A stretch of 32,000 nt of DNA from contig CAWFMJ010000024.1 in the NCBI GenBank assembly GCA_963816715.1, positions 14,111 to 46,110 on the forward strand, given 5' to 3'. Of the stretch, positions 6,447-31,885 are shown piece after piece. Position numbers and translations under genes: made by a program. This DNA comes from an uncultured delta proteobacterium (lineage in GTDB: Bacteria; Desulfobacterota; Syntrophorhabdia; Syntrophorhabdales; WCHB1-27). Positions within the stretch are counted from its first letter, which is position 1, and the number at the start of each line of letters is the position of its first letter. A model generated the notes under the pieces. It worked only from the letters and a program-made list of their open reading frames with translations, searched no databases and was not told the DNA's origin.

Positions 6447-7637
6447 ATGACAAGGGCATTAGAAGACGTGACGGTGATAGACCTTACGCAGGCGCTTGCA
6501 GGCCCGTTTTGCACCCAGCAATTGGCGTTGATGGGCGCCAACGTCATACGAATTGAGCCGCCCTCGGGCGGTTACGGAACAGCCGTCTTCGGGGGCTTCG
6601 AAATGGACATCCGGAGAAGGCTGTTCGGCACCTGTTTCGCGAACAAGAAGAATACAACCCTCAACCTGCGCACCGAGAAAGGCAAAGAGTTGTTTTTCCG
6701 TCTGGTGGAGAAGGGGGATGTAATCGTTCAGAACTTCTCGCCCGGCACTATGGAGAAGTTGGGTCTTGACTACGAGGTGCTGAAGAAAGCAAATCCCAAG
6801 ATCGTCTACTGCGCCATTTCGGGATACGGACAGACCGGGCCGTGGAAAGACAAAGTCGCCTACGACATGTTTGTTCAGGCATCGACCGGCTTCATGAGCA
6901 TGAACGGCTACCCCGATAGAGAGCCGCTCAGGGTCGGCGTACCGATCTCGGACCTGCTGGGAGGGCTCTATGCCGCTATCGGCATATTAACCGCCCTCCA
7001 TGCGCGAGATAAGGTGACCGGCGAGGGACAAATGATCGATTGCGCCATGTTCGACGCAACCATTTCGCTTCTTCAGGAAGCTGCATCCCTCAGCCTGTTT
7101 CGCGGCGAGCCTGTGCCGCGGACGGGGAACCGTCATCCCTTTGGCGCTCCCTCCGACACGTTCGACACCAGGGACGGCAAGCCGGAATATATCGGGACCC
7201 AGACGGATGGCCAGTGGAAGGCCCTCATAGGCCTGATTGCCCCGAACGATGTCGAAAAAAGGGAATGGGGCGTGCTCGACCGCCTGAAGCGCGGCGATGA
7301 GATCGATGCGATCGTCCGGGCATGGGCAAAAACGAAAACGCGGGAGGAAATCGAGGAACTCCTTTCACGTTGCGACGTGCCCTGCGCCCCTGTTCTGAAC
7401 ATGATCGAGGTTTCACAACACCCGCACACAAAAGCGAGGGAGATGTTCATTGACGCCGACGACATGTTCGGAACCATCACAGGGCTGATAGGAGTGGCGC
7501 CGAAACTGTTGGGCACGCCGGGAAGGATCGACTGGGGGATCATGGAGCGAGGGGCTTTCAATGAAGAAGTTTATGCAGGTCTCCTGGGGCTGACTGAAGA
7601 GGAGATGGATGACCTGAAGGAGAAACATGTCATCTGA
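6447..7637 (+). CDS. Family III CoA-transferase (CaiB/BaiF family)
   Basis: DLTQALAGPFCTQQLALMGANVIRIEPP and YCAISGYGQTGPW are hallmark family III CoA-transferase segments. RBS AAGGAGG lies upstream. Confidence 0.85.
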   Translation: MTRALEDVTVIDLTQALAGPFCTQQLALMGANVIRIEPPSGGYGTAVFGGFEMDIRRRLFGTCFANKKNTTLNLRTEKGKELFFRLVEKGDVIVQNFSPGTMEKLGLDYEVLKKANPKIVYCAISGYGQTGPWKDKVAYDMFVQASTGFMSMNGYPDREPLRVGVPISDLLGGLYAAIGILTALHARDKVTGEGQMIDCAMFDATISLLQEAASLSLFRGEPVPRTGNRHPFGAPSDTFDTRDGKPEYIGTQTDGQWKALIGLIAPNDVEKREWGVLDRLKRGDEIDAIVRAWAKTKTREEIEELLSRCDVPCAPVLNMIEVSQHPHTKAREMFIDADDMFGTITGLIGVAPKLLGTPGRIDWGIMERGAFNEEVYAGLLGLTEEEMDDLKEKHVI

Positions 7638-8473: not shown

Positions 8474-8623
8474 CTCGCCTTTTCTATCCAATATTTCCCG
8501 CGTGACAGCGACAAAAGGGGAGCATGAGTCGATCTCCCCTGATATGCGGTGGGGGGCGTTCCTGGAAGCCTCAACGTCAGGTCCGCCAGAAATGCCAAGG
8601 AGCTCCAGCGGCATGTGGTTTGC

Positions 8624-10651
8624 ATGCAAGATAATCGTATGTCTGGAGAACCTGATAGAAAAGAGGCCCTTCGCAAACCGAAAAAACAATACTGCAGGCC
8701 TTTCGAAACGTTGCCCGACGGATTCGCCTCGGTAGACCTGAATGGACGGATTATTGACAGTAACCCTACTTTCCAGGCGATGGTGGGATATACTCGCGAA
8801 GAACTCTCCGGCCTTTCGTATCATCGACTAACCCCCGAGAAGTGGCACGCCCGTGCGGACAAGATCATCAGGGAGCAGGTATTGAAGAGGGGCTATTCCG
8901 GGGTCTGCGAGATGGAGTGCCTGAGAAAAGACGGAACGGTTTTGCTCGTCGAGGTCAGAGCCCACCTCCTCAAGGATGAAAGCAGCGGCCCCGCGGAGAT
9001 ATGGGGGTTTATCAGGAACACTGCCAAGCGCAAAAACATGGAAGAGACTGTGCGGGAAAGCGAGGAGAAGTTCAGACTCCTTTTTGAGAAGTCGGTCGAC
9101 GCCGCGCTCCTCCTGGATGGGGATACGTTCGTAGACTGCAACGAGGCTGCCTTAGAGCTCATGCGTTGTACGGCAAAGAACCAGCTCGTGGGGCTTCGTC
9201 CCTCCGACATCTCCCCGGAGAGACAGCCCGACGGCCGCTTATCTTCAGAAAAAGCCGAGGAACTCGCCGATGTCGCCCTGGGGGAGGGCGTCAGCCGTTT
9301 CGAATGGGTGCACCGGAATTTTTCCGGCGAAGAGCTCTGGATCGAAGTCTCTCTCACCGGCATTCCCATTCGAGGAAAACAGATGATGTACACGGTGTGG
9401 AGGGATATCGCCGAACGCAAGAAGGCCGAGGCTCGGCTGAGGGAATCTGAGGAGCGTTACCGGATAGCCGTTGAACATTCCAACGACGGAGTGGCTATTG
9501 TCAGCGGGCAAAGAAACGTATACGCGAATCAGAAATTTCTTGACATTCTCGGCTACGAGAGACCTGAGGAGATTATTGAAGAATCTCGTCTGCTCGGCGC
9601 GCACCCCGACGATCGGGAGATGGTGGCGGAGTATGCTCGCCGAAGGGAGCAAGGAGAGTCGGCGCCCCTGCGTTATGAATTCAAGGGGATGCGGAAGGAC
9701 GGCACGAAGCTCGACATGGAAGCTTCTGTTGCCTGCATCACTTACCACGGGAAACCAGCCTCACTCGCCTATCTCAGGGATATAACGGAGCGTAAGCTGG
9801 CGGAAGCGGAATTCAGGAGAAGCGAAGAGAGATACCGGAAGATTTTTGAGAATGCCATCGAGGGCATCTTTCAGACTACTCCTGAGGGGAGATTTTTGAA
9901 CGCCAACCCTGCTCTCGCCAGGATGTTCGGGTACGAATCGCCCGAAGAACTCATGGAAAAAGTCACCGACGTGGGGTGTCAACTTTACGCGGGTCCGGAA
10001 GACCGCGAGAACATCATAGCCTTCGTCCAGAAGCAGGGCGTCCTGAGAAACGTCGAGCTGCAGTTTCTGCACAAGGAAGGATTCAAGATCTGGGTCTCAT
10101 TAAACTACAATACGATTCAGGACGCGGACGGGAACACGCTCTATTATGAAGGAACATGCATAGATATCTCCGAACGCAAGCTTGCCGAGGAAGCGCTCAA
10201 GAAAAGGGAGAAAGAACTGGAGATCAAGTCCCTGAACCTGGAAGAGGCCAATACGGCGCTAAAGGTGTTGCTGAAACACAGACAAGAGGATAAGACAGCG
10301 CTCGAAAACACAATCCTCGCTAATGTCAGGGAAATGGTCTTTCCCTATATTGAGAAGCTGAAAGGCAGCCATCTCGGTGATAATCAGTTGACCTACTTGA
10401 ATATTCTGGAGTCGAGTTTGAATGAAATTGTTACGCCCCTTTCGCAGAAGATGGCCGCAGGCTACGCCCGCTTTACACTGATGGAGATTCAGGTAGCGAC
10501 ACTGACCAGAGCCGGAAAGACGAGCAAAGAAATCTCGGGGCTTCTTGGCTTGTCCAAGCGTACCATTGACACCCATAAGAATAACATGAGAAAGAAACTC
10601 GAACTGAGCAATAAGAAAGTCAATCTGCAGGCCTATCTGAGGACCATGTAG
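8624..10651 (+). CDS. PAS-domain (x4) LuxR-family transcriptional regulator, one-component type
   Basis: Four PAS-like repeats are present. The last three end in DI(A/T/S)ERK(K/L)AE; the first ends in FIRNTAKRK. A coiled-coil linker follows, then a C-terminal LuxR/GerE helix-turn-helix (TLMEIQVATLTRAGKTSKEISGLLGLSKRTIDTHKNNMRKKLEL). The start is ambiguous: GTG 8615, ATG 8624 or ATG 8639. Confidence 0.8.
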   Translation: MQDNRMSGEPDRKEALRKPKKQYCRPFETLPDGFASVDLNGRIIDSNPTFQAMVGYTREELSGLSYHRLTPEKWHARADKIIREQVLKRGYSGVCEMECLRKDGTVLLVEVRAHLLKDESSGPAEIWGFIRNTAKRKNMEETVRESEEKFRLLFEKSVDAALLLDGDTFVDCNEAALELMRCTAKNQLVGLRPSDISPERQPDGRLSSEKAEELADVALGEGVSRFEWVHRNFSGEELWIEVSLTGIPIRGKQMMYTVWRDIAERKKAEARLRESEERYRIAVEHSNDGVAIVSGQRNVYANQKFLDILGYERPEEIIEESRLLGAHPDDREMVAEYARRREQGESAPLRYEFKGMRKDGTKLDMEASVACITYHGKPASLAYLRDITERKLAEAEFRRSEERYRKIFENAIEGIFQTTPEGRFLNANPALARMFGYESPEELMEKVTDVGCQLYAGPEDRENIIAFVQKQGVLRNVELQFLHKEGFKIWVSLNYNTIQDADGNTLYYEGTCIDISERKLAEEALKKREKELEIKSLNLEEANTALKVLLKHRQEDKTALENTILANVREMVFPYIEKLKGSHLGDNQLTYLNILESSLNEIVTPLSQKMAAGYARFTLMEIQVATLTRAGKTSKEISGLLGLSKRTIDTHKNNMRKKLELSNKKVNLQAYLRTM

Positions 10652-10991: not shown

Positions 10992-13196
10992 ATGAGTCTG
11001 AGAAACGTGAAGATCGGAAAGAAGCTCGGTTTCGGATTCGGAATCATCGTACTCCTGATGGTCGTGCTGACAGTAATAGGCGTATCTGGACTGGCGAGCA
11101 TGAAAGGAAAGCTTGACCGGATCGTCAACGTGAACAATGCGCGCATCGAATATGGGAACCGCCTCATACTGGCCGTCGATGACATCATCTTGAATCAGCC
11201 CGAGCTGATCACTTCGAAGTCTGCCGCCAAGAAGGAGGAGGTGAAAAGCAAGATCGAAAGAGCCAGGGCTGAGTACGGGGAGGCCTTGGGCAATCTCGAA
11301 AAACTCCTGGATACGCAGAAGGAAAGAGACCTTGTTAACGCGATAAAGCAGATGATCGCGGGCGCCAAGGAGTCTAACAACAGGATGATGGAGCTGAGCC
11401 TCAACAACGAGATAAACGAGGCGCTCTCGGTTTACTCGAGTCAGGCGCGACCGATGGGAGAAAAAGTGCGGCAGGCGTGCGAGGAATTCATCAGCCTACA
11501 GCAGACGTTGAACAGAACCAGGTACGAAGAGACGGTGGCAACGTGCGCTTTCATCGAGACTTTTCTTATTTTCGTTGCTGGGCTTGCGGTGCTTCTGGGA
11601 ATATCGGCGGCGTACGTTCTCACCCGCATGATCAAGATCCCGCTTCAACACTTGGTGGAGGCCACGGATAAGCTTGCCGCCGGCGACCTCAACATCGCTA
11701 TTGAGTCGGATGCGGACGACGAGATCGGCATGCTCTCCCGTTCTTTTGAACGTATGGTCGGAAATGTGCGCAATTCTGCAGCGGCGTTAGAACAGATAGC
11801 GCGCGGGAACCTGGACATTGACCTCGAGGTCAGATCGGATAATGATCTCCTCAACAAGAACCTCCATACGATGGTTGCAACTCTGAAGAGCGTTAATGAC
11901 GAGATGAATAAGCTTTATCGGGAGCAGAAAGCGGGGGATATCGAGTACCTTATCCCTGTCGACAAATTTGCCGGCGCCTATGAACAGGTGGCGATGGGCG
12001 TAAACGAGGCCGTCAAGCTGCACGTCGATAATGTTCTCAAGATACTCGGCATTTTGTCTTCCTACGCCGAAGGTGATTTCTCGCCAGTTCTCGAGAAACT
12101 TCCCGGCAAGCAGATAATAGCGAACGAGAAGATGGATGCGCTGAGAGATTCCATGAACGAGGTTTCCCGCATTGCCGAAGAGATCGCATCGGGCAACCTC
12201 GTGCTCACGGTGAAAGAGCGCTCAGCCAAAGACGATCTGATGCGATCCTTTGCTGTCATGGTCGCAAAGCTGACCGAAATCGTCAACAGCGTGAAGACCG
12301 CCGCAGACAACGTAGCCGCCGGAAGCGAACAGATGAGCGCAAGCTCCCAACAGGTGTCCCAGGGCGCGACCGAGCAGGCTGCATCCGCTGAGGAAGTTTC
12401 ATCATCTATGGAACAGATGGTCTCCAATATCAGGCAGAACGCCGACAATGCGCAGCAGACCGAAAGGATCGCCCTGAAGGCCGCGCAGGACGCGGAGAAA
12501 GGGGGCGGGGCAGTCATAGAGACAGTAGCCGCCATGAAGGAAATCGCCACGAAGATCACGATAATAGAGGAGATTGCCCGCCAGACGAACCTTCTCGCCT
12601 TGAACGCCGCCATCGAGGCTGCCCGTGCAGGGGAACACGGCAAGGGTTTTGCTGTCGTAGCCGCCGAGGTCCGGAAGCTTGCCGAGAGAAGCCAGGTAGC
12701 AGCCGGCGAGATAAGCAAGCTGTCAGCCTCCAGCGTTGATGTGGCGGAGAAAGCCGGCGAAATGCTCGCCAAGATCGTTCCCGATATCCAAAAAACCGCA
12801 GAATTGGTCAGCGAAATCAACGCCGCAAGCAACGAACAGAACGCCGGAGCTGAGCAGATCAACAAGGCGATTCAGCAGTTGGACCAGGTTATCCAACAGA
12901 ATGCTTCGGCAACAGAGGAGATGGCGTCGACCTGTGAGGAGCTGTCCGGCCAGGCAGGTCAGTTGCAGGATACGGTCGAGTTTTTCAAGGTAGCGGACAG
13001 CGGAGCGGCAGAGCGGCACAAGAGCAGAGGGGTTCAAGGAGGAGGGGCAAAAGGAGCGAATGCTTCTCCACGCCCCCTCGTCGACTCTCCCACGCAAGCG
13101 TCGAGAGATGGAAAAGGCAGCGGCAAGCACGGCAGCATCGCCCTGGACCTGGACAGCGGGAAAGACAAGTTGGACGACGATTTCGAGAGATTCTAG
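10992..13196 (+). CDS. Methyl-accepting chemotaxis protein (4HB/HAMP-containing)
   Basis: The N-terminal TM segment ([21 protein letters not shown]) is followed by a periplasmic helical region, a second TM and HAMP ([29 protein letters not shown]). The highly conserved MCP signalling hairpin is present ([42 protein letters not shown]). RBS AGGGAG. Confidence 0.92.
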
Positions 13197-13433
13197 GGCA
13201 AAGGCGGCAGGGGCCGAGGCTTTTTCAGGCCCCCTTGCCCCCTGAACCCACTTTTCCAATAGGGAGGCTAACGAAGAGCGTGCCGTGTGCTTCGTGGCGT
13301 CAACAAAAGCGAGACTTTGCGAGCGCAGGAATGAAACCTGCGACCCACCCATGACCCTTCCAGACTACACCTTATTGAATTTATTGAGTATAAATGGCGG
13401 AGGGAGAGGGGAATTCGAACCCGGGCCTGCTTG

Positions 13434-13871
13434 TCAGGGTGATTCGTACAGCGATTCGGGCAGCGATTCTATATACGCCTTGATCTCGTCTCGCACGCGC
13501 CGGTAGTGCCGCATGGCCTGCTCTTTGTCCGGGGCGTCTTTTGCGAGCCGGGGCGGATCCTCAAAACTGCGGTGGATGAGAGCCGTTTTGGCGGGGAAGA
13601 AGGGACAGGTCTGCTGGGCATCGTCGCAGAGGGTGATGACGTAATCAAACTCCCTATCGCCCAGCTCTGCCACCGATTTGGACCGCTGCCCGGAGATATC
13701 AACGCCTGCTTCCTCCATGGCCCGCACGGCCCGTGGATCGACGCCTTGAGGCTGGGTTCCCGCCGAGTACGCTTCCAGAATGTCTGCCTTCAAGCGTTTT
13801 GCCCATCCTTCGGCCATCTGGCTGCGGCAGGAATTGCCCGTACAAAGGAACAACACTTTCAGTTTCCGCAT
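13434..13871 (-). CDS. arsC: Arsenate reductase, thioredoxin-coupled LMW-PTPase type
   Basis: P-loop LFLCTGNSCRSQMAEG (CX5R). The downstream Cys pair VITLCDDAQQTCP matches the C10/C82/C89 architecture of pI258-type ArsC. Confidence 0.9.
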   Translation of the reverse strand: MRKLKVLFLCTGNSCRSQMAEGWAKRLKADILEAYSAGTQPQGVDPRAVRAMEEAGVDISGQRSKSVAELGDREFDYVITLCDDAQQTCPFFPAKTALIHRSFEDPPRLAKDAPDKEQAMRHYRRVRDEIKAYIESLPESLYESP

Positions 13872-13926
13872 GACCTGCTCCGAAAGTCATCCTGCTGAAT
13901 CTTACAGGAATGGCGCCGCCCAATCT

Positions 13927-14229
13927 TTACTGACAGGAGGGGCAGCCGTCGTCATCCACGACGCAACAGGCCTTCTTTCTGCCAAGCATCTTGTTGAGTA
14001 GGCCCGCTGCACAGCCCACACCCGCCCTCACGTTCAGGGAGCCGCTCGGGCAGTTCTGCCGGCAGGCGCCGCACTCGATGCACGCGTCCCGGGAGGCGAC
14101 TTCGATCTTCCCGTTCACAGGCCGGAACACCTCGCGCGGGCAGACGGCAAGGCACATGCCGCAGCCCGTGCACCGGGAAGCGTCAAAGGCGAGAGTGACC
14201 ACATCTTCAAGGTAGAGCAAGGGACGCAT
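13927..14229 (-). CDS. hgcB: HgcB, 2x[4Fe-4S] ferredoxin partner of HgcA
   Basis: This 100-aa ORF starts at ATG 14229 and is the C-terminal part of the track's 352-aa ORF. It has two ferredoxin motifs, CTGCGMCLAVCP and CIECGACRQNCP; the second contains the HgcB signature C(M/I)ECGA. A single Cys lies at residue 73 (GVGCAAG) and a vicinal CC at 88-89. The start lies 5 nt after the hgcA stop. Confidence 0.85.
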   Translation of the reverse strand: MRPLLYLEDVVTLAFDASRCTGCGMCLAVCPREVFRPVNGKIEVASRDACIECGACRQNCPSGSLNVRAGVGCAAGLLNKMLGRKKACCVVDDDGCPSCQ

Positions 14230-14234
14230 GGCTT

Positions 14235-15152
14235 CTACCCTCCCATCGCTGCGGCGGCGATCCACAGAGCGAGGCCCACGGTCATCCCCCCTACTTCGAG
14301 GGGAAGGGCAAGACGCATCTCCTTCTGAACTCCGGAGAGCGACGTATACGTGGAGGCGCCGGTAAAGTTCATCGCCAAAAATGCAGCCAAAGCGGGAATG
14401 GAGAAGAGCTGGGCGAGAGCAGCGGCCACGCCGGGATGCAGGAAGGCGTTGTTGAACGCGAGGGCGCAAAGGGCGAACAGGAAACCCGGGCCGAGGCCCT
14501 TTGTCGAGAAGGCCCTGCCGGGCAGCCAGGGGAGAAGAAGGGGGGCAAGGGTCGCTCCGGCAAGGATCGAGGCGCCGAGGGAAACGGCAGCCGGCAAGAT
14601 CCAGTATGCCGCCTTCGATACAGAGAAGCCGGAAACAAGGAAGAAAAGGATGGAGAGCCCCGCCGCCGCGAGGATACCCCACTTGAGGCCGGGCACAACC
14701 TCCATGGGGACCAGGGCGAGCCTCTCGTTGAGACAAAAATCCTTTGTCCGCATCCGGCCCGTTGCCTTCAGACCGTTTTTGAGGAAGGCAGGCAGGTCGT
14801 CCGCGCGGACCGGGCCGTAAACCACCTGAAAACCGGAGCGCTGCCTTACAACGTGTGCCGATACGCCGGGCGCGCCCAACTGCGGCACGATAAGGCGCCG
14901 ATGGGATACGATGGCCGCGAGGCCGCTCGACTCGATGCGCTCCACCAGCTCGTCCGTCCCGAACGTGCCCTTTCCCGCTGCGCACCAGACGTTAATCCCC
15001 TGCGTGTCGAGGACGAGGATCCACCCATCTATCCCGGCGAGGGCCCTTCTGAGGAGGTCGAAGGTCATCTTGTAGTTCGCGGTCACAAAAACCGGCGATT
15101 CCGGACGGGCAGTTCCTATCCCATACAGGCCGGGCTCGACCGCGTAGCGCAT
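14235..15152 (-). CDS. hgcA: HgcA, corrinoid mercury-methylation protein (minimal ORF from the first in-frame ATG; the true N-terminus very likely lies upstream, see 15153-15359)
   Basis: The diagnostic cap-helix motif GINVWCAAGKGTFGT is present, corresponding to N(V/I)WCA(A/G)GK. The corrinoid-binding-domain-like N-half (VFVTANYKMTFDLLRRAL, WILVLDT) is followed by about 5 hydrophobic helices. It sits directly upstream of hgcB. Confidence 0.88.
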   Translation of the reverse strand: MRYAVEPGLYGIGTARPESPVFVTANYKMTFDLLRRALAGIDGWILVLDTQGINVWCAAGKGTFGTDELVERIESSGLAAIVSHRRLIVPQLGAPGVSAHVVRQRSGFQVVYGPVRADDLPAFLKNGLKATGRMRTKDFCLNERLALVPMEVVPGLKWGILAAAGLSILFFLVSGFSVSKAAYWILPAAVSLGASILAGATLAPLLLPWLPGRAFSTKGLGPGFLFALCALAFNNAFLHPGVAAALAQLFSIPALAAFLAMNFTGASTYTSLSGVQKEMRLALPLEVGGMTVGLALWIAAAAMGG

Positions 15153-15359
15153 GCGTCCGATCCCCCATCGCGCCTTGAAGGCGCCGAGTCGGTCAGACCC
15201 GCTAAAAATCTGCGATACCCGAGGGACGGCGCCGACGCCGGTCTCTATCGAACCCGTGACGAAAGCCTGATCGAAGCGCGGAGGACTCGCCTGAGCCCTT
15301 TGCTTCGGTCCTCAACAGGCTTTCGCGGCAGGCGTCTTGATCTGGCACAAGGTTTCCAT
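15153..15359 (-). other. hgcA: In-frame upstream extension of hgcA containing a TGA codon (15312-15314); candidate selenocysteine recoding, or alternatively a nonsense lesion
   Basis: Hand translation of the minus strand gives ATG(15359-15357) ETLCQIKTPAAKAC-TGA-GPKQRAQASPPRFDQAFVTGSIETGVGAVPRVSQIFSGSDRLGAFKARWGIGR-ATG(15152). There is no ATG, GTG or TTG between the TGA and 15152. From memory of HgcA homologues, this stretch looks like conserved HgcA N-terminal sequence. Confidence 0.5.
15272..15307 (-). promoter_or_regulatory. SECIS-like bipartite hairpin starting 4 nt after the in-frame UGA of hgcA
   Basis: The mRNA reads UGAGGAC-CGAAGC-AA-AGGGCUC-AGGC-GAGUCCU-CCGC-GCUUCG. The lower stem is 6 bp (CGAAGC/GCUUCG). 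The upper stem is 7 bp (AGGGCUC/GAGUCCU, with one G-U pair). The apical tetraloop AGGC places GG at nt +24/+25 counted from the U of UGA. This is comparable to the loop G23/U24 position in the E. coli fdhF SECIS. Folded by hand only. Confidence 0.35.
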
Positions 15360-15366
15360 ATTTTCA

Positions 15367-15395
15367 AACATAAACGCTTTCGACGTCCCTGTCAA
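15367..15395 (-). promoter_or_regulatory. Sigma70-type promoter candidate for hgcA (TTGACA-N17-TATGTT)
   Basis: On the minus strand, the -35 TTGACA is at 15395-15390, followed by a 17-nt spacer and the -10 TATGTT at 15372-15367. The ATG at 15359 begins 8 nt after the -10 hexamer, which implies a leaderless or near-leaderless transcript. Confidence 0.35.
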
Positions 15396-15400
15396 GAGGA

Positions 15401-15497
15401 TATATAAACTATTTTAGATGTGAGGTAACTATTTGATTGACCTGGGCCACGATATGCGTTATCAATATTAATCATACTTGATGTAAGCGGAGGGAAA
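15401..15497. promoter_or_regulatory. AT-rich divergent control region between hgcA and arsR, with candidate arsR promoter and operator repeats
   Basis: Plus-strand TTGACC (15437-15442), N17, TATCAA (15460-15465), with RBS GGAGGG at 15489-15494. An inverted repeat ATCAA-N12-TTGAT (15461-15482) overlaps the -10. The direct repeat AACTATTT occurs at 15407 and 15427, 20 nt apart. Confidence 0.35.
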
Positions 15498-15860
15498 ATG
15501 GATGAGCTCCTATCCTTATTCAAAGCGCTGTCGGACGAAACGAGGTTGAGGATAGTAAAGCTCCTGGAGAACGGCGAGCTTTGTGTATGCCATCTCGTGG
15601 CCGCTGTCGACATGTCCCAGCCGAAGGTTTCGTTCCACCTCAAGGTACTGAAGGGGGCGGGGCTGATCAAGGACAGGCGCGAGGGGAAATGGATGTATTA
15701 TCGCCTCAATGAATCGGACCTGTTCAAACGACTCCTTTTTCTGTCCGTCGCCGACCGGGTCCGGGAGGAAGAGATGGCGGCCGACCACGCAAGACTCGAC
15801 GCGTTCAGGACGCCGCGCGCGGATGGGGACCCTGGGACCGGTTGCTGTGTGGGGGCATGA
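15498..15860 (+). CDS. arsR: ArsR/SmtB-family metalloregulator
   Basis: [50 protein letters not shown] is a winged HTH carrying the type-1 As(III) site ELCVC(D/H)L. An additional vicinal CC lies near the C-terminus (GTGCCVGA). Confidence 0.9.
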
Positions 15861-16951
15861 AAATGAACGACACGACCCGCAGACTGTCTTTCCTCGACCG
15901 CTTCCTGACGCTCTGGATCTTCCTCGCCATGTTCGTCGGCGTCGGCTGGGGATATGCCTTCCCCGGCGTGGTGGCTTTCTGGAATCGCTTCCAGAGCGGG
16001 ACAACGAACATCCCGATTGCCATCGGCCTTATCCTCATGATGTACCCACCCCTGGCGAAGGTCAGGTACGAAGAGCTCGGCGAGGTTTTCAAGAACTTCA
16101 AGGTCCTCGGCCTGTCACTCGTGCAGAACTGGGTGGTGGGCCCGATCCTCATGTTCGTTCTCGCGATCGTTTTCCTCGAGGGCTATCCCGACTATATGGT
16201 GGGCCTCATCATGATCGGCCTGGCCCGCTGCATCGCCATGGTCATCGTGTGGAACGACCTTGCCAGGGGAGACGCCGAGTACTGCGCGGGCCTCGTGGCC
16301 TTCAACGCCCTCTTCCAGGTCCTCTTCTTCAGCGTTTACGCCTACGTCTTTATCACGGTCCTGCCCCCGATGCTCGGCCTGAAAGGCGTTGTGGTCAATA
16401 TCACCATAGGCCAGATCGCCAAAAGCGTCTTCATCTATCTGGGCGTTCCTTTCATCGCGGGCGTAGCGACGCGTTTTGTCCTCATTAACGTCAAGGACAA
16501 GGTCTGGTATCACGAGCGGTTCATCCCGAAGATCAGCCCCATCACCTTGATCGCCCTCCTGTTCACGATCCTCGTGATGTTCTCCCTCAAGGGCGAGTAT
16601 ATCGTCAAGATCCCTCTCGATGTAGTCCGCATCGCGGTTCCGCTCCTTGTCTACTTCATCGTCATGTTTCTCGTTTCCTTCTACATGAGCGGCAAGGTCG
16701 GCGCCCACTACGGCCAGGCAGCCACCCTGTCATTTACTGCGGCTTCCAACAACTTCGAGCTGGCGATCGCCGTCGCGGTTGCCGTTTTCGGCATCAATTC
16801 CGGGCAGGCCTTCGCAGCAGTCATAGGTCCGCTGGTTGAAGTGCCGGTGCTGATCAACCTGGTCCATCTGTCTCTGTGGTTCAAGAGGAAATACTTCCCC
16901 TATGCAAGAGAAACAGCAATCGGGGTGTGCTACTACACGTGCAGGCAGTAA
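15857..16951 (+). CDS. acr3: ACR3-family arsenite efflux permease
   Basis: [21 protein letters not shown] and the conserved [13 protein letters not shown] segment with the essential Cys are present, with about 10 TM helices. ATG 15857 overlaps the arsR stop (ATGA). ATG 15863 is an alternative start. Confidence 0.9.
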
Positions 16952-16976
16952 GACTATTTCGATCAAGGGGGCCGAG

Positions 16977-17426
16977 ATGAAGAACAGAACCGAAGTTGCG
17001 GTAGAGAAGTTTATGCAGGGTTACAACTGTGCCCAGTCGGTATTCTACTCTTTTTGCGACGACGTCGGATTCGATAAGAATGCGGCGTTGAAAATAGCCT
17101 GTGGATTCGGGGCCGGCATGGGGCGCAAAGAGGAGGTCTGCGGCGCCGTAACGGGCGGGATAATCGTCATCGGTATGAAATATGGCAGGGGCGAGAACGA
17201 CGCCCGTGCGGCTACGGAACTGACCTATGCAAAGACGCGAGAGCTGATGGACCGTTTTTCAGAGAAGCGCGGGACCTTCATCTGCCGAAAGCTGCTGGAC
17301 GGCTGCGAACTCACCGCCGAGGAGGGACAAAAGCACTTCAAGGAGAAGGACCTCTCGAACAAAACATGCAAGCTGTGCGTTCAAGACGCAGTCAGCATCC
17401 TGGAAGGCATCATTCAGGCAGAGTGA
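16977..17426 (+). CDS. C_GCAxxG_C_C family putative redox protein
   Basis: Family-defining pattern: YNCAQSV, CGFGAGMG (GCAxxG-like) and EEVCGAVTGG, plus late cysteines (FICRKLL, CKLC). ATG 16977 with RBS AAGGGGG is preferred over the track start 16902, which overlaps acr3. Confidence 0.8.
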   Translation: MKNRTEVAVEKFMQGYNCAQSVFYSFCDDVGFDKNAALKIACGFGAGMGRKEEVCGAVTGGIIVIGMKYGRGENDARAATELTYAKTRELMDRFSEKRGTFICRKLLDGCELTAEEGQKHFKEKDLSNKTCKLCVQDAVSILEGIIQAE

Positions 17427-17440
17427 ACCGGCCAAATGCT

Positions 17441-17475
17441 GTTCAAAATCTCGTGTTTGTAACCTTTTTTGTTTG
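17441..17475 (+). terminator. Candidate intrinsic terminator of the arsR-acr3-C_GCAxxG_C_C operon
   Basis: Hairpin GTTCAAA (17441-17447) pairs with TTTG(T)AAC (17456-17463), with an 8-nt loop and one bulge. It is followed by C-TTTTTT-GTTTG (17464-17475). The stem is AT-rich and therefore weak. Confidence 0.4.
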
Positions 17476-17796
17476 AGAAGACAAATGCGGTGGGACTTGC
17501 TCTGTTCCGTTTAATCAGTTCCCACGCCCTGTCGCTTGGGCTTGAATCCACCTGCTTTAACCGGCGGTGGATCGGGGACGAGTGCCAGCTCGGCCGGGTC
17601 AAGGCGGCGCCTTGCCGACCGCTGCCAGCAAGCCTTGAGGGGGCGTTCCCGGCCGACTATTTGCATCCGGCTCGCGGCGCCCCGATCGCCGCTCACAGCC
17701 CGCCTTCCCCTCCGTCGGGGAGCGCCTCACGAAAATTATACCGTTGCAAGAGTGGCGAACTTCCCATTCCGTCCCCCGGCAAACCTCGTCCTTTTA

Positions 17797-17825
17797 TTGA
17801 AATAGTCCTTTGCCTGTGATAGATT
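17797..17825 (+). promoter_or_regulatory. Sigma70-type promoter candidate upstream of the dGTPase-like gene
   Basis: TTGAAA (17797-17802), N17, TAGATT (17820-17825), with a TG at 17817-17818 (extended -10). It lies about 28 nt upstream of ATG 17853. Confidence 0.3.
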
Positions 17826-17852
17826 ACCTTGGTATTATCGCTCTTTATCAAT

Positions 17853-18890
17853 ATGAATATCAGGGAAATGTTAGAGGACCGAGAGGAGAAGAACCTCTCC
17901 TCATACGCGCAGAAGAGCCGCCTTACCAGGGGACGGCTGGAGGAAGAAGTCCCCTGCGACATCAGACCGGCTTTTCAGCGCGACCGGGACAGGATTGTCC
18001 ACTGCAAAGCCTTTCGCAGGCTCAAGTATAAGACGCAGGTTTTTCTTTTCCCCTCCGACGACCATTACAGGACCCGCCTCACCCACACGCTCGAGGTTTC
18101 TCAGATCGCCAGAACGATCGCCAAGTCGCTCTTTCTGAATGAGGACCTCGTCGAGGCCATCGCGTTAGGCCACGACCTGGGCCATACCCCTTTCGGCCAT
18201 TCGGGGGAAGCGACCTTGCACAAGCTTCACCCGGGGGGCTTCCGCCACAACGAGCAGAGTCTGCGAGTGGTCGATGTCCTTGAGAGGGAAGGGCGCGGCC
18301 TGAATCTGACCATTGAAGTGCGGGACGGAATATTGAAGCATTCCAAAGGACGGGGATCTCTGATCGTGAAAGACGAGGCGAAAAAACCGCTTACCAGAGA
18401 GGCGGAAGTGGTCAGGATCGCCGATGTGATCGCCTACATCAATCACGACATCGACGACGCTATAAGGGGCGGCGTGATTGCGCTGGAAGACCTGCCCGCC
18501 CGATGCCGAAAGGTTCTCGGCGAGACGCATTCGAAGCGAATAGATCGCATGGTGCGAGCGGTAATAGGGGAGACGGCAAAGCGAGGCAACATGGCCGTCG
18601 AGCCCGAGATTGAAGAATGTATGATGGAGCTTCGCGACTTCCTCTACTTTCGTGTCTACGAAAATCCGACCGTGCACGAAGAATTCGAGAAGTGCTCAAA
18701 GATTATCGAGGAGATTTACCGCTATTTCATGGACCGGCCGGACGCCTTTCTTCAAGAGGCGGGATACAAAACGTTTCTGGCGCCGCCTGCGGTCAGCGTC
18801 TGCGATTTCATAGCGGGAATGACGGATCGCTACGCCTTTACTCTTTTTGAGAAGCTATTCCTTCCCATGCCTTGGAAGATGCCCGTTTAA
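17853..18890 (+). CDS. dgt: dGTP triphosphohydrolase-like HD-domain protein (short Dgt family)
   Basis: [55 protein letters not shown] and DRYAF are the canonical dGTPase-family segments. ATG 17853 is preferred; TTG 17829 is possible. Confidence 0.85.
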
Positions 18891-29986: not shown

Positions 29987-30289
29987 AGTCCCCCCCTTTG
30001 TTTTGTCGCCTTCCCTTCTATTGTCCCATGATTGCCGTCACTGCGAAGATGCTCTGCCGATTTGCGTTCGCACATCCCCCCTTTCTTACGAGACGCGACG
30101 TATAAGCGCGACAGAACCGGGCCTTCCCCATCGGCGTTTAGAAACCGGACACGACGCTTTTAAAACATGGGCGCATCCGCCGTTCCTACCGGATGCCTGA
30201 CGCGCAACGGTACCTCCATTATACACCAGCACCATGCGGCAAGCACGATGATTTCCGCGCCTTTAAAAAAATGCTACGCTAAGGAACCC

Positions 30290-31885
30290 ATGCGAGTATT
30301 GCTTGTTCAGCCGCCCATAGAGGACTTTTACGACACCTCCATCAGGACGTACCCGCTCGGTCTGCTCTATCTCGCGACGCGCGTGAGCGCGATTGCCGAC
30401 GTCGTCCTCCTCGATGCGAGGACCGGCTACAAGCCGCGGCAGCTTCCGAAGCACGAATTTCATGAGCTTGAGCCGTTCTACAGGGAAAGCTTCACTCCTT
30501 TTTCGTTTTTCAGCCGCTACCGTCGTTTTGGGCTCACTTCCGTTGAAATGAGACAGATCGTGGAAAAGGAACGGCCCGACGTGGCGGCGATCTCCTCAAT
30601 GTGCAGCGCCTACGAAAAAGAGGCGTTGGAAGCGGCAACGGCGGCCAAAGAGGCGAACCGGGAAATCGTGACCGTGATGGGCGGCGTCCACGCTACGCTC
30701 TTCCCTGAACGCCTTCTTGCGCATCCCGATGTCGATTACTGCGTGCGGGGAGAAGGAGAAACGCCCTTTTTTGAGCTGGTTTCCGCCTTGTGCCGTGGTC
30801 TGCGGCCGGGCAGCGACATTCCGGGTCTCTGTTTTAGGGAAGGCGGGCAGTTCCACATCTCCGATCCGAACGTCGAGACGGACATCGACCTCCTGCCCGC
30901 CCGACAGTATGCGGACGCGAGCCGTTACGTGATCAACAGGAAAAAGTATGCTTTCTTTCTCACTTCCAGGGGTTGCCCCTTTTCCTGCGCTTTTTGCGGG
31001 AAACCGCCCATCCCCTACAGGAAGCGGCGACTGGACGGCATCGCCGAAGAGATAGAAGCGTGCGCCGGAGGGGGCATAGAAGCAATCGACTTTGAGGACG
31101 ATATGCTCAATCTGGACAAGCAATCTTTCCAGGCGACGCTTAACCTGCTTGCCCCCAAAGCATTCACGCTGTCCGCCATGAACGGCATATACCCGACGCA
31201 CATGGATGCGGCAACGCTGGATCTCATGTATTCGGCCGGCTTTCGACGCCTCAACTTTTCCGTCGTGGATCTGTCCGAGTCGATCCTGTCGGCCCAGGGG
31301 AGAGCATCCCAGAAAAGTTTCATGAAGCTCCTGCCCTATCTCGACCGCTCGCCCTTCCTGACAGAAGTCCATTTTATCGTGGGCCTGCCGGGGCAACGCC
31401 CCGCGGACCTGCTGGATACCCTCTGCTTTCTCATGGGTCAGAGACTGCTATTGGGACCCAGCATCTTTTATCTTTCGCCGGGCAGTCCGATAGCCGCATC
31501 CTTCGACAGCGCCGCGGCGCCGTTGGCGCGGATGCGGTCGAGCGCCATGCTTCCCGTCAACCCGCTCTTTCCGCGGAGCGTCACCTTCGCCTTCATGAAG
31601 CTCGTGAGGTTCATCAACTACACAAAGCAACTCCTCGACCGGCACGACGGCATAAGCAGGGCGAGCGAACTCCCCGTTATTCAAGCCGTCGCGGCCGACG
31701 AGCGGAAGCAAGTGATCTTCGAGCGTCTCCTGTTCGGGAAGAAGTTCGTCTGCTACGAGCCGGGGCGGAACGGGCCTGAGGATGAAGCAGCCGACCCCAA
31801 CCTGGTCCGGATGTTCTTCGAGAAAGCGAAAGGAATGACCATCAAAGGGTACAAGACGGACAAGACGCTGCTGGTAGACGTCTGA
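30290..31885 (+). CDS. B12-binding-domain radical SAM protein (class B)
   Basis: MRVLLVQPP...YPLGLLYLA and DVAAISSM...VTVMGGVHAT form the N-terminal cobalamin-binding-like domain. SRGCPFSCAFCG is the CX3CX2C radical SAM motif. ATG 30290 with AAGGA upstream is preferred over the track start 30167. Confidence 0.85.
   Translation: MRVLLVQPPIEDFYDTSIRTYPLGLLYLATRVSAIADVVLLDARTGYKPRQLPKHEFHELEPFYRESFTPFSFFSRYRRFGLTSVEMRQIVEKERPDVAAISSMCSAYEKEALEAATAAKEANREIVTVMGGVHATLFPERLLAHPDVDYCVRGEGETPFFELVSALCRGLRPGSDIPGLCFREGGQFHISDPNVETDIDLLPARQYADASRYVINRKKYAFFLTSRGCPFSCAFCGKPPIPYRKRRLDGIAEEIEACAGGGIEAIDFEDDMLNLDKQSFQATLNLLAPKAFTLSAMNGIYPTHMDAATLDLMYSAGFRRLNFSVVDLSESILSAQGRASQKSFMKLLPYLDRSPFLTEVHFIVGLPGQRPADLLDTLCFLMGQRLLLGPSIFYLSPGSPIAASFDSAAAPLARMRSSAMLPVNPLFPRSVTFAFMKLVRFINYTKQLLDRHDGISRASELPVIQAVAADERKQVIFERLLFGKKFVCYEPGRNGPEDEAADPNLVRMFFEKAKGMTIKGYKTDKTLLVDV

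Follow-up and report, generated by a model that had tools for sequence, protein, structure and literature searches.

An hgcAB pair with an in-frame selenocysteine codon lies in an arsenic-resistance cluster, divergent from arsR, in an uncultured relative of Syntrophorhabdus

The arsenic-resistance genes acr3, arsC (of the thioredoxin (Trx) or the glutaredoxin (Grx) type), arsR and arsM flank the mercury-methylation genes hgcAB, or lie at most a few open reading frames (ORFs) away from them, in diverse putative methylators, as illustrated by the selected examples in Fig. 6 of the survey by McDaniel (2020, PMC7438021). In Pseudodesulfovibrio mercurii ND132, an ArsR-like regulator controls hgcAB transcription and responds to arsenic, and a native arsenic-related role of HgcAB has been explicitly raised (Gionfriddo, bioRxiv 10.1101/2022.10.17.512643). 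HgcA proteins bearing an N-terminal cysteine-selenocysteine (Cys-Sec, or CU) motif were described by Haft and Gwadz (bioRxiv 10.1101/2022.07.06.499078), are covered by family model NF040863 and are treated in a review (PMC13188914). The ars-hgcAB neighbourhood, the control of hgcAB by ArsR, the arsenic-function hypothesis and the Sec codon are all already published. Here we describe a chromosomal locus from an uncultured relative of Syntrophorhabdus (Desulfobacterota), in which hgcAB are built into an ars cluster and face a divergent arsR. It lies in a stretch of 32,000 nucleotides of contig CAWFMJ010000024.1 (positions 14,111 to 46,110), hereafter the window, to which all coordinates refer unless a locus is named. 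The locus bears on two questions of mercury biogeochemistry, namely how hgcAB expression is controlled and what the true purpose of HgcAB is.

The cluster is compact: six genes within 4 kb (13434-17426) form two divergent operon-like arms, hgcA-hgcB-arsC on the minus strand and arsR-acr3-C_GCAxxG_C_C on the plus strand. Its features, with the evidence for each, are the following.

13434 to 13871, minus strand: arsC, Trx-coupled LMWP-type arsenate reductase, 145 aa (Pfam LMWPc, Cys triad)
13872 to 13926, minus strand: hgcB-arsC spacer, 55 nt, with a GGAG Shine-Dalgarno just 5' of the arsC ATG (sequence, scan)
13927 to 14229, minus strand: hgcB, 2x[4Fe-4S] ferredoxin, 100 aa (NF040864 match)
14235 to 15359, minus strand: hgcA, predicted corrinoid mercury-methylation protein, 374 codons including one UGA read as Sec (NF040863 match)
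15265 to 15320, minus strand: hairpin resembling a selenocysteine insertion sequence (SECIS) (fold energy, 38-sequence covariation)
15312 to 15314, minus strand: in-frame TGA, the Sec codon (residue 16), after TGT (Cys15) (alignment to Cys, locus census)
15360 to 15497, between the arms: divergent control region, 138 bp, with back-to-back sigma-70-like promoter-like sites (promoter scan, 10-locus alignment)
15498 to 15860, plus strand: arsR, ArsR/SmtB metalloregulator, 120 aa (NF033788, PF01022)
15857 to 16951, plus strand: acr3, arsenite efflux permease (TIGR00832)
16977 to 17426, plus strand: C_GCAxxG_C_C Cys-rich protein, 149 aa, Cys form (PF09719, TIGR01909)

Spacing is operon-like in both arms. 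hgcB starts 5 nt past the hgcA stop codon, arsR and acr3 overlap by 4 nt (ATGA), and 25 nt separate acr3 from the C_GCAxxG_C_C gene. An earlier note on this DNA had named the six genes, and NCBIfam and Pfam profile scores together with motifs recovered all of them where it had placed them; the 55-nt gap between hgcB and arsC and the 138-nt region shared by hgcA and arsR, which it had also reported, are both exact. Its structural claim, that hgcAB are built into an ars cluster with arsC as third gene of their arm, holds and is strengthened by the comparative data presented below. Based on this organization, we consider it fairly probable that the locus consists of two divergent operons under one As(III)-responsive ArsR switch, with hgcA-hgcB-arsC forming a single transcript.

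With respect to its neighbourhood, the cluster is of the same kind as the examples selected by McDaniel (PMC7438021); the clade-wide divergent arsR/hgcAB core, the persistence of arsR beyond acr3 and the tight hgcB-arsC coupling come from our own comparison and are not stated in the portions of that survey available to us. The ArsR2-hgcAB operon of ND132 (Goñi-Urriza 2020; Gionfriddo, bioRxiv 10.1101/2022.10.17.512643) likewise has an ArsR-family regulator immediately beside hgcAB. In ND132, however, arsR lies on the same strand as hgcAB, is cotranscribed with them and has no other ars gene colocalised, whereas in the window arsR is divergent and heads its own arsR-acr3 operon while arsC lies behind hgcB. 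The regulators themselves differ, as the window ArsR combines the CVC As(III) site of classical type with a CC pair at its C-terminus and the ND132 ArsR2 is described as distinct from that strain's other ArsR/SahR proteins. The locus would be an arrangement-level counterpart of the ArsR-hgcAB control demonstrated in ND132. Like minimal arsRBC-type operons (arsR-acr3-arsC), it encodes a functionally complete set consisting of a CVC-type ArsR, Acr3 and a Trx-coupled LMWP ArsC, but here arsC stands apart from arsR-acr3, behind hgcAB on the opposite strand, and a C_GCAxxG_C_C gene is third in the arsR operon.

The identities of the encoded proteins rest on family models and diagnostic residues. 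HgcA scored 431.8 bits against NF040863 (cut-off 275), aligning at 323 of the 325 model positions, versus 194 bits against the HgcAB_like fusion model (cut-off 285) and 78 bits against the acetyl-CoA synthase gamma subunit model (cut-off 306); it is a true HgcA and not the HgcAB-like fusion paralogue, and the refutation by paralogy that the earlier note had allowed for does not apply. Family membership is thereby supported, mercury methylation itself being predicted. Its translation contains the cap-helix motif INVWCAAGKG (GINVWCAAGKG with the preceding Gly), where GINVWCAAGKGTFG fits the pattern N(V/I)WCA(A/G)GK that includes the corrinoid-ligating Cys, and its C-terminal half is hydrophobic, with long segments across residues ~215-374 as judged by eye on the translation rather than by a transmembrane predictor. 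HgcB scored 109.9 bits against NF040864 (cut-off 99). ArsR matched NF033788 (108 bits) and PF01022 (HTH_5, 67 bits), and bears GELCVCHL in helix alpha-3 (CVC, a Cys32/Cys34-type site) as well as a C-terminal GCC. Acr3 reached 448.2 bits against TIGR00832 (cut-off 282.8) over model positions 1-326 of 327, and its start is most likely ATG 15857, which overlaps the arsR stop as ATGA. ArsC matched PF01451 (LMWPc, 80 bits), and residues read off its translation include the Cys10-X5-Arg16 P-loop (C10TGNSCRS), Cys82, Cys89 and Asp105. Since its best NCBIfam match, TIGR02691 (pI258 type), scored 134.4 bits and thus under the equivalog cut-off of 174.3, we file it as ArsC-like, of the LMWP type and bearing the Trx-type triad, and do not call it a strict equivalog. 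The C_GCAxxG_C_C protein scored 116 bits against PF09719 and 82.7 bits against TIGR01909; homology with L015 and P0124 and an AAGGGGG Shine-Dalgarno ahead of it make 16977 the most likely start rather than 16902.

The synteny comparison that the earlier note had proposed was carried out on ten Syntrophorhabdia-type loci, i.e., the window, L001-L003 and L162-L167. A metagenome scan for relatives yielded mostly sequences at 48-58% identity, with L081 alone at 72%, and closer relatives were fetched individually; HgcA identity to the window is 75% for L001, 70% for P0005 (Syntrophorhabdales) and 65% for L003 (Syntrophorhabdus aromaticivorans UI). A divergent arsR lies directly upstream of hgcA, across about 140 bp, in all ten loci, while the remainder of the cluster varies. 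acr3 is intact in the window and in L002, L003, L162, L163 and L165, whose copies are 86-91% identical to that of the window. It is split into two ORFs in L164 (4207-5297), reduced to short tblastn remnants upstream of arsR in L166 and L167, and not detected in L001; arsR and hgcAB are intact in L164, L166 and L167. In all four of these loci the arsR kept beside hgcA retains its sensor cysteines, and both Cys motifs, GELCVC(H/Y)L and the C-terminal CC, are found in 9/9 related ArsR proteins. Within the set, arsC lies behind hgcB in the window, L164 and L001 and on the arsR side in L167, and three loci (the window, L165 and L166) have the C_GCAxxG_C_C gene on their arsR arm. Homologues of arsC follow hgcB in L001, L164, L154 and L063, and the two genes are separated by 55 nt in the window and by 54 nt in L164 but overlap by 13 nt in L001.

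Outside this clade, ars genes and hgcAB are found linked on the same strand, as arsC-hgcAB-acr3 in Bacteroidales, as arsR-hgcAB-acr3-arsC in a metagenome-assembled genome (MAG) of Bacillota and as acr3-arsC-hgcAB in L011. The linkage appears to have arisen independently in these other phyla. Several Desulfobacterota carry an ArsR-like gene upstream of hgcAB on the same strand, as in ND132. Overall, an ars-type or C_GCAxxG_C_C gene occurs no further than 3 kb from hgcA in at least 46 of 167 hgcA loci, a minimum count given that many of the contigs are short.

The 138-bp control region also holds conserved elements. The promoter scan reported an hgcA promoter-like site with -35 TTGACA (15395-15390) and -10 TATGTT (15372-15367) followed by 7 nt and the ATG, matching the consensus at 10/12 positions. 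The pattern TTGACA-17 nt-TAnnnT-7 nt-ATG is conserved across the ten loci, with TTGACA invariant. Since the promoter box is 7 nt from the ATG and no Shine-Dalgarno is present ahead of it, the hgcA mRNA is probably leaderless or nearly so. On the opposite strand, the arsR promoter-like site consists of -35 TTGACC (15437-15442), 17 nt and -10 TATCAA (15460-15465), upstream of a GGAGGG Shine-Dalgarno and the arsR ATG; its -35 is kept, as GTCAA (hgcA-strand reading) is invariant across the ten intergenic regions. An AT-rich block that is likewise conserved (15452-15484) overlaps both the -10 and the 5' untranslated region of arsR. The only palindromes found in the control region are short and AT-rich, one TTAATATT-like at 15461-15472 and TATATA beside the hgcA -35. 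At the hgcB-arsC junction, the scan revealed no promoter-like or terminator-like site, the spacer folds weakly and has no T-run; no terminator was found after arsC either. Between the two -35 hexamers, we also noted an exact 8-nt direct repeat, AACTATTT, at 15407-15414 and 15427-15434 (20 nt apart), which is partly kept in L001 and not in other relatives.

These elements suggest how a single switch would operate. hgcA, hgcB and arsC would be transcribed as one leaderless mRNA whose first base would be that of the hgcA ATG or lie no more than one or two bases from it, and an ArsR dimer would bind the shared region and repress one or both promoters. The sensor sites of this ArsR would be the Cys-Val-Cys of helix alpha-3 and the C-terminal Cys-Cys, from which As(III) or another thiophilic metal(loid) would trigger release of the repressor, so that arsenate reduction, arsenite efflux and HgcAB would be switched on together. 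The conserved pairing and promoter-like elements support, without proving, shared ArsR control of both arms, which we regard as probable. From the gene arrangement we infer that mercury methylation may itself be under As(III)/ArsR control.

Several observations weigh against such a shared switch. No ArsR operator dyad common to the ten loci emerged from a repeat search and column inspection of the alignment, and a second candidate site beside the hgcA -35 is only loosely like the AT-rich block. The block itself is some 70 bp away from the hgcA -35, on its upstream side, a position more in keeping with autoregulation of arsR than with repression of hgcA. The arsR -10 candidate TATCAA breaks the final-T rule and was not reported by the promoter scan, and the near-consensus hgcA promoter could be constitutive. 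Finally, hgcAB are often reported to be weakly or constitutively expressed, and hgcAB transcript levels in ND132 were not predictive of methylation rates, according to the abstract of the preprint by Gionfriddo (bioRxiv 10.1101/2022.10.17.512643).

Taken together, these points would fit two arms regulated separately, with ArsR autoregulating only arsR-acr3-C_GCAxxG_C_C and hgcA-hgcB(-arsC) expressed from its own strong promoter, the adjacency reflecting shared ancestry or co-transfer. This alternative stays plausible because the conserved block is on the arsR side, and the fact that ~72% of the 167 hgcA loci have no ars-type gene within 3 kb indicates that hgcAB can be independent of ars genes. 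We nevertheless consider it less likely, as arsR remains beside hgcA in all ten loci even where acr3 is decayed or absent, ArsR-like genes are tied to hgcAB on the same strand in several other lineages, arsC is embedded in the hgcAB arm and ArsR control has been shown experimentally in ND132.

A further possibility is that HgcAB is a metalloid-handling enzyme, transferring for example a corrinoid methyl to As(III) held on Cys-Sec, with mercury methylation as a side reaction and the whole cluster as one functional arsenic pathway. The position of hgcAB between arsR/acr3 and arsC and the recurrence of ars genes beside hgcAB across phyla are consistent with such a role, and a vicinal Cys-Sec pair could ligate As(III) and Hg(II) alike. 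In addition, an hgcAB knockout of ND132 was more As(V)-sensitive, as reported in the abstract of the preprint (Gionfriddo, bioRxiv 10.1101/2022.10.17.512643). Against this, most hgcAB loci have no ars neighbours, the sequence does not tell an arsenic from a mercury substrate, and the hypothesis is already in the literature. HgcAB is not known to methylate arsenic, and we regard this role as very unlikely.

The hgcA start at 15359, proposed in the earlier note, stands only if an in-frame TGA, which that note had overlooked, is decoded as Sec. A plain ORF call gives a protein of 305 aa starting at 15152, because no ATG, GTG or TTG occurs between the TGA and residue 70. Yet the HgcA model match begins at residue 45, 25 residues ahead of the first canonical start codon 3' of the TGA, protein similarity runs on both sides of the TGA, and the ATG at 15359 is kept as 'MET/MEx' among relatives. 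In full-length homologues (P0003, P0005, P0022, P0076, P0079, P0083 and P0089) the TGA aligns to a Cys, the second one in SCCG/SCCP. The P0005 protein, encoded by a Syntrophorhabdales MAG, has METLIPLHTPAAPSCCGSWKRTQASPP where the window reads METLCQIKTPAAKAC-TGA-GPKQRAQASPP. We extended the comparison to hgcA loci drawn from collections of genomes and metagenomes; in the 147 loci that could be evaluated, the CU site was distributed as follows.

TGA: 70/147 loci, 63 of them with the TGA directly after a Cys codon
CC: 35/147 loci
Single Cys: 21/147 loci
No Cys: 19/147 loci
TAA: 2/147 loci
TAG: 0/147 loci

A stop codon thus occupies the site in 72 loci, nearly always as TGA. No such codon was found for the partner protein: the Cys73 position is free of stop codons in all of 141 HgcB genes.

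The TGA is followed by a SECIS-like hairpin whose apical stem pairs 15298-15293 with 15288-15283 around a G-containing 4-nt loop, AGGC (15292-15289). The distance from UGA to loop is 19 nt, and the minimum free energy of the hairpin is -25.6 kcal/mol. Across an alignment of 38 sequences, 84.6% of the stem cells are paired and both partners have changed in six of seven pairs; the observed values were not matched in any of 500 shuffles, and slid controls reached at most 57.9% paired. A search of Rfam over 13000-18000 returned no SECIS or other family match. Two points count on the other side: the fold of the window sequence taken singly is not exceptional (z -1.66), and selA, selB, selC (tRNA-Sec) and selD are not within the 32-kb window. 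The Sec machinery was present in all 20 species examined by Haft and Gwadz (bioRxiv 10.1101/2022.07.06.499078). Since the TGA aligns with Cys, recurs in 70 of the 147 loci and has a covarying hairpin behind it, we predict that the window HgcA is a Cys15-Sec16 selenoprotein. The alternative that the TGA is a genuine stop and hgcA a pseudogene or the product of misassembly, as the 305-aa ORF call and the equally short database form P0001 might suggest, appears effectively excluded by the near-absence of other stop codons at the site, the Cys codon usually preceding the TGA, the Cys found there in homologues, the similarity on both of its sides, the covarying hairpin and the prior publication of the selenoprotein family.

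The Sec codon was considered as a new finding and this was rejected, since the feature has been published before and NCBIfam/PGAP take account of it. Like the HgcA proteins of Haft and Gwadz, that of the window has its UGA directly after a Cys codon, within an N-terminal extension 5' of the old annotated start, and aligned with CC. It differs by its pentapeptide, ACUGP, from the PCUGP reported to be perfectly conserved in their 20 cases (bioRxiv 10.1101/2022.07.06.499078), and the context of the CU site is looser across the loci compared here (SCUP, GCUP, TCUA and others). Whereas their SECIS elements were inspected manually, ours was assessed by alignment covariation, which is a small addition to the published HgcA SECIS. 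The database copy P0001 is not alone in its truncation, as many close relatives are called likewise. Standard gene callers truncate this HgcA at the Sec codon, and the Cys-Sec tail, probably a metal-binding element, is missing from surveys and structural models that rely on calls of this kind.

HgcB bears CTGCGMCLAVCP and CIECGACRQNCP, with two CX2CX2CX3CP motifs at residues 20-30 and 50-60. The CIECGAC motif and Cys73 described in the earlier note are present, but the vicinal cysteines it had placed at the C-terminus are residues 88-89 and are followed by an 11-residue tail, VVDDDGCPSCQ, which includes CPSC. In this clade the vicinal Cys pair of HgcB is not C-terminal: an acidic stretch comes next, plus a CxxC in the window and L164. 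The respective tails are ...KKACCVVDDDGCPSCQ in the window (13927-13962) and ...KACCVVDDDKCPSCR in L164 (6925-7227), and in L001 (9130-9432) the tail is a variant containing just one Cys, ...TACCGVDDDSRTCQS. In L163, a long-read-type assembly, hgcB (6928-7230) was called at 64 aa as a result of a frameshift and not of a Sec codon. The place that arsC occupies behind hgcB in the window is taken by a pyridine nucleotide-disulfide oxidoreductase gene in L165 (7473-8840; 455 aa with Pyr_redox_dim) and L163 (7266-8381; 371 aa), with VKOR and TetR genes nearby.

On the plus-strand arm, a near-identical second assembly (L161, Logan contig ERR11523660_1227202) shows an apparent indel relative to the window at ~15840-15860, the 3' end of arsR. 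It results in a longer read-through ArsR C-terminus and affects the C-terminal CC motif, which is probably an assembly or strain difference. The third gene of this arm was considered as a dedicated partner of hgcAB. C_GCAxxG_C_C genes lie next to hgcAB in six Smithella/Syntrophaceae-type loci (L015, L018, L023, L026, L042 and L148), their products being 51-60% identical to that of the window. In L015 (1858-4551, ORFs read), the gene is divergent from a MarR-like regulator (C-terminal GACGCCK) directly ahead of hgcAB, and hgcA is of the non-Sec form, with Cys residues and no UGA at the CU site. The subfamily is highly conserved, at 72-85% identity across phyla, and no hgcA lies beside its members in five further contexts, one of which is inside an Omnitrophota ars operon. 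This operon (L169, 2967-8238) comprises arsR, arsP, C_GCAxxG_C_C, an S-adenosylmethionine (SAM) methyltransferase gene (arsM-like), Thioredoxin_3, a DsbD-like gene and acr3, with no hgcAB. Because of these five contexts, the dedicated-partner idea was downgraded, and the protein seems to be no specific partner of hgcAB but an accessory of a general kind, for metal(loid) or thiol stress.

The flanks of the cluster consist of ordinary chromosomal genes, namely an HD phosphohydrolase, an amidase, LigD, a large ORF read as valS and, convergent with arsC, a chemoreceptor-like ORF. Judged by translation alone, of two ORFs beside the cluster one (10992-13196) resembles a methyl-accepting chemotaxis protein, and the other (8549-10651) has PAS-like repeats and ends in a LuxR-like domain. 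Elsewhere in the window (30167-31885) there is a radical SAM gene of the B12-binding type; no link of these genes to the cluster was seen.

The further small additions of our analysis to the published record, none of which is new in concept, are the clade-wide conservation of the divergent arsR/Sec-hgcAB core, the persistence of arsR where acr3 decays and the conserved promoter geometry. The locus is a clean natural example of methylation genes interleaved with an ars regulator, pump and reductase, in which the pairing with the regulator outlives the pump. Because of this persistence in relatives and of the interleaved ars set, the cultured Syntrophorhabdus aromaticivorans UI (L003), which has the same acr3-arsR/hgcAB core, would be a good second model beside ND132 for ArsR/As(III) control. 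Since arsR stays with hgcA where acr3 is decayed or missing, it is tempting to suggest that the conserved target of the Syntrophorhabdia CVC/CC-type ArsR is the Sec-hgcAB operon rather than arsenite efflux, HgcAB being metalloid-induced from a leaderless mRNA; we hold this suggestion to be distinctly doubtful. Were ArsR to target hgcAB in this manner, the C_GCAxxG_C_C protein might serve as an accessory thiol/selenol redox partner, and HgcAB, through the Cys-Sec tail it carries, would belong integrally to arsenic/thiophilic-metal handling.

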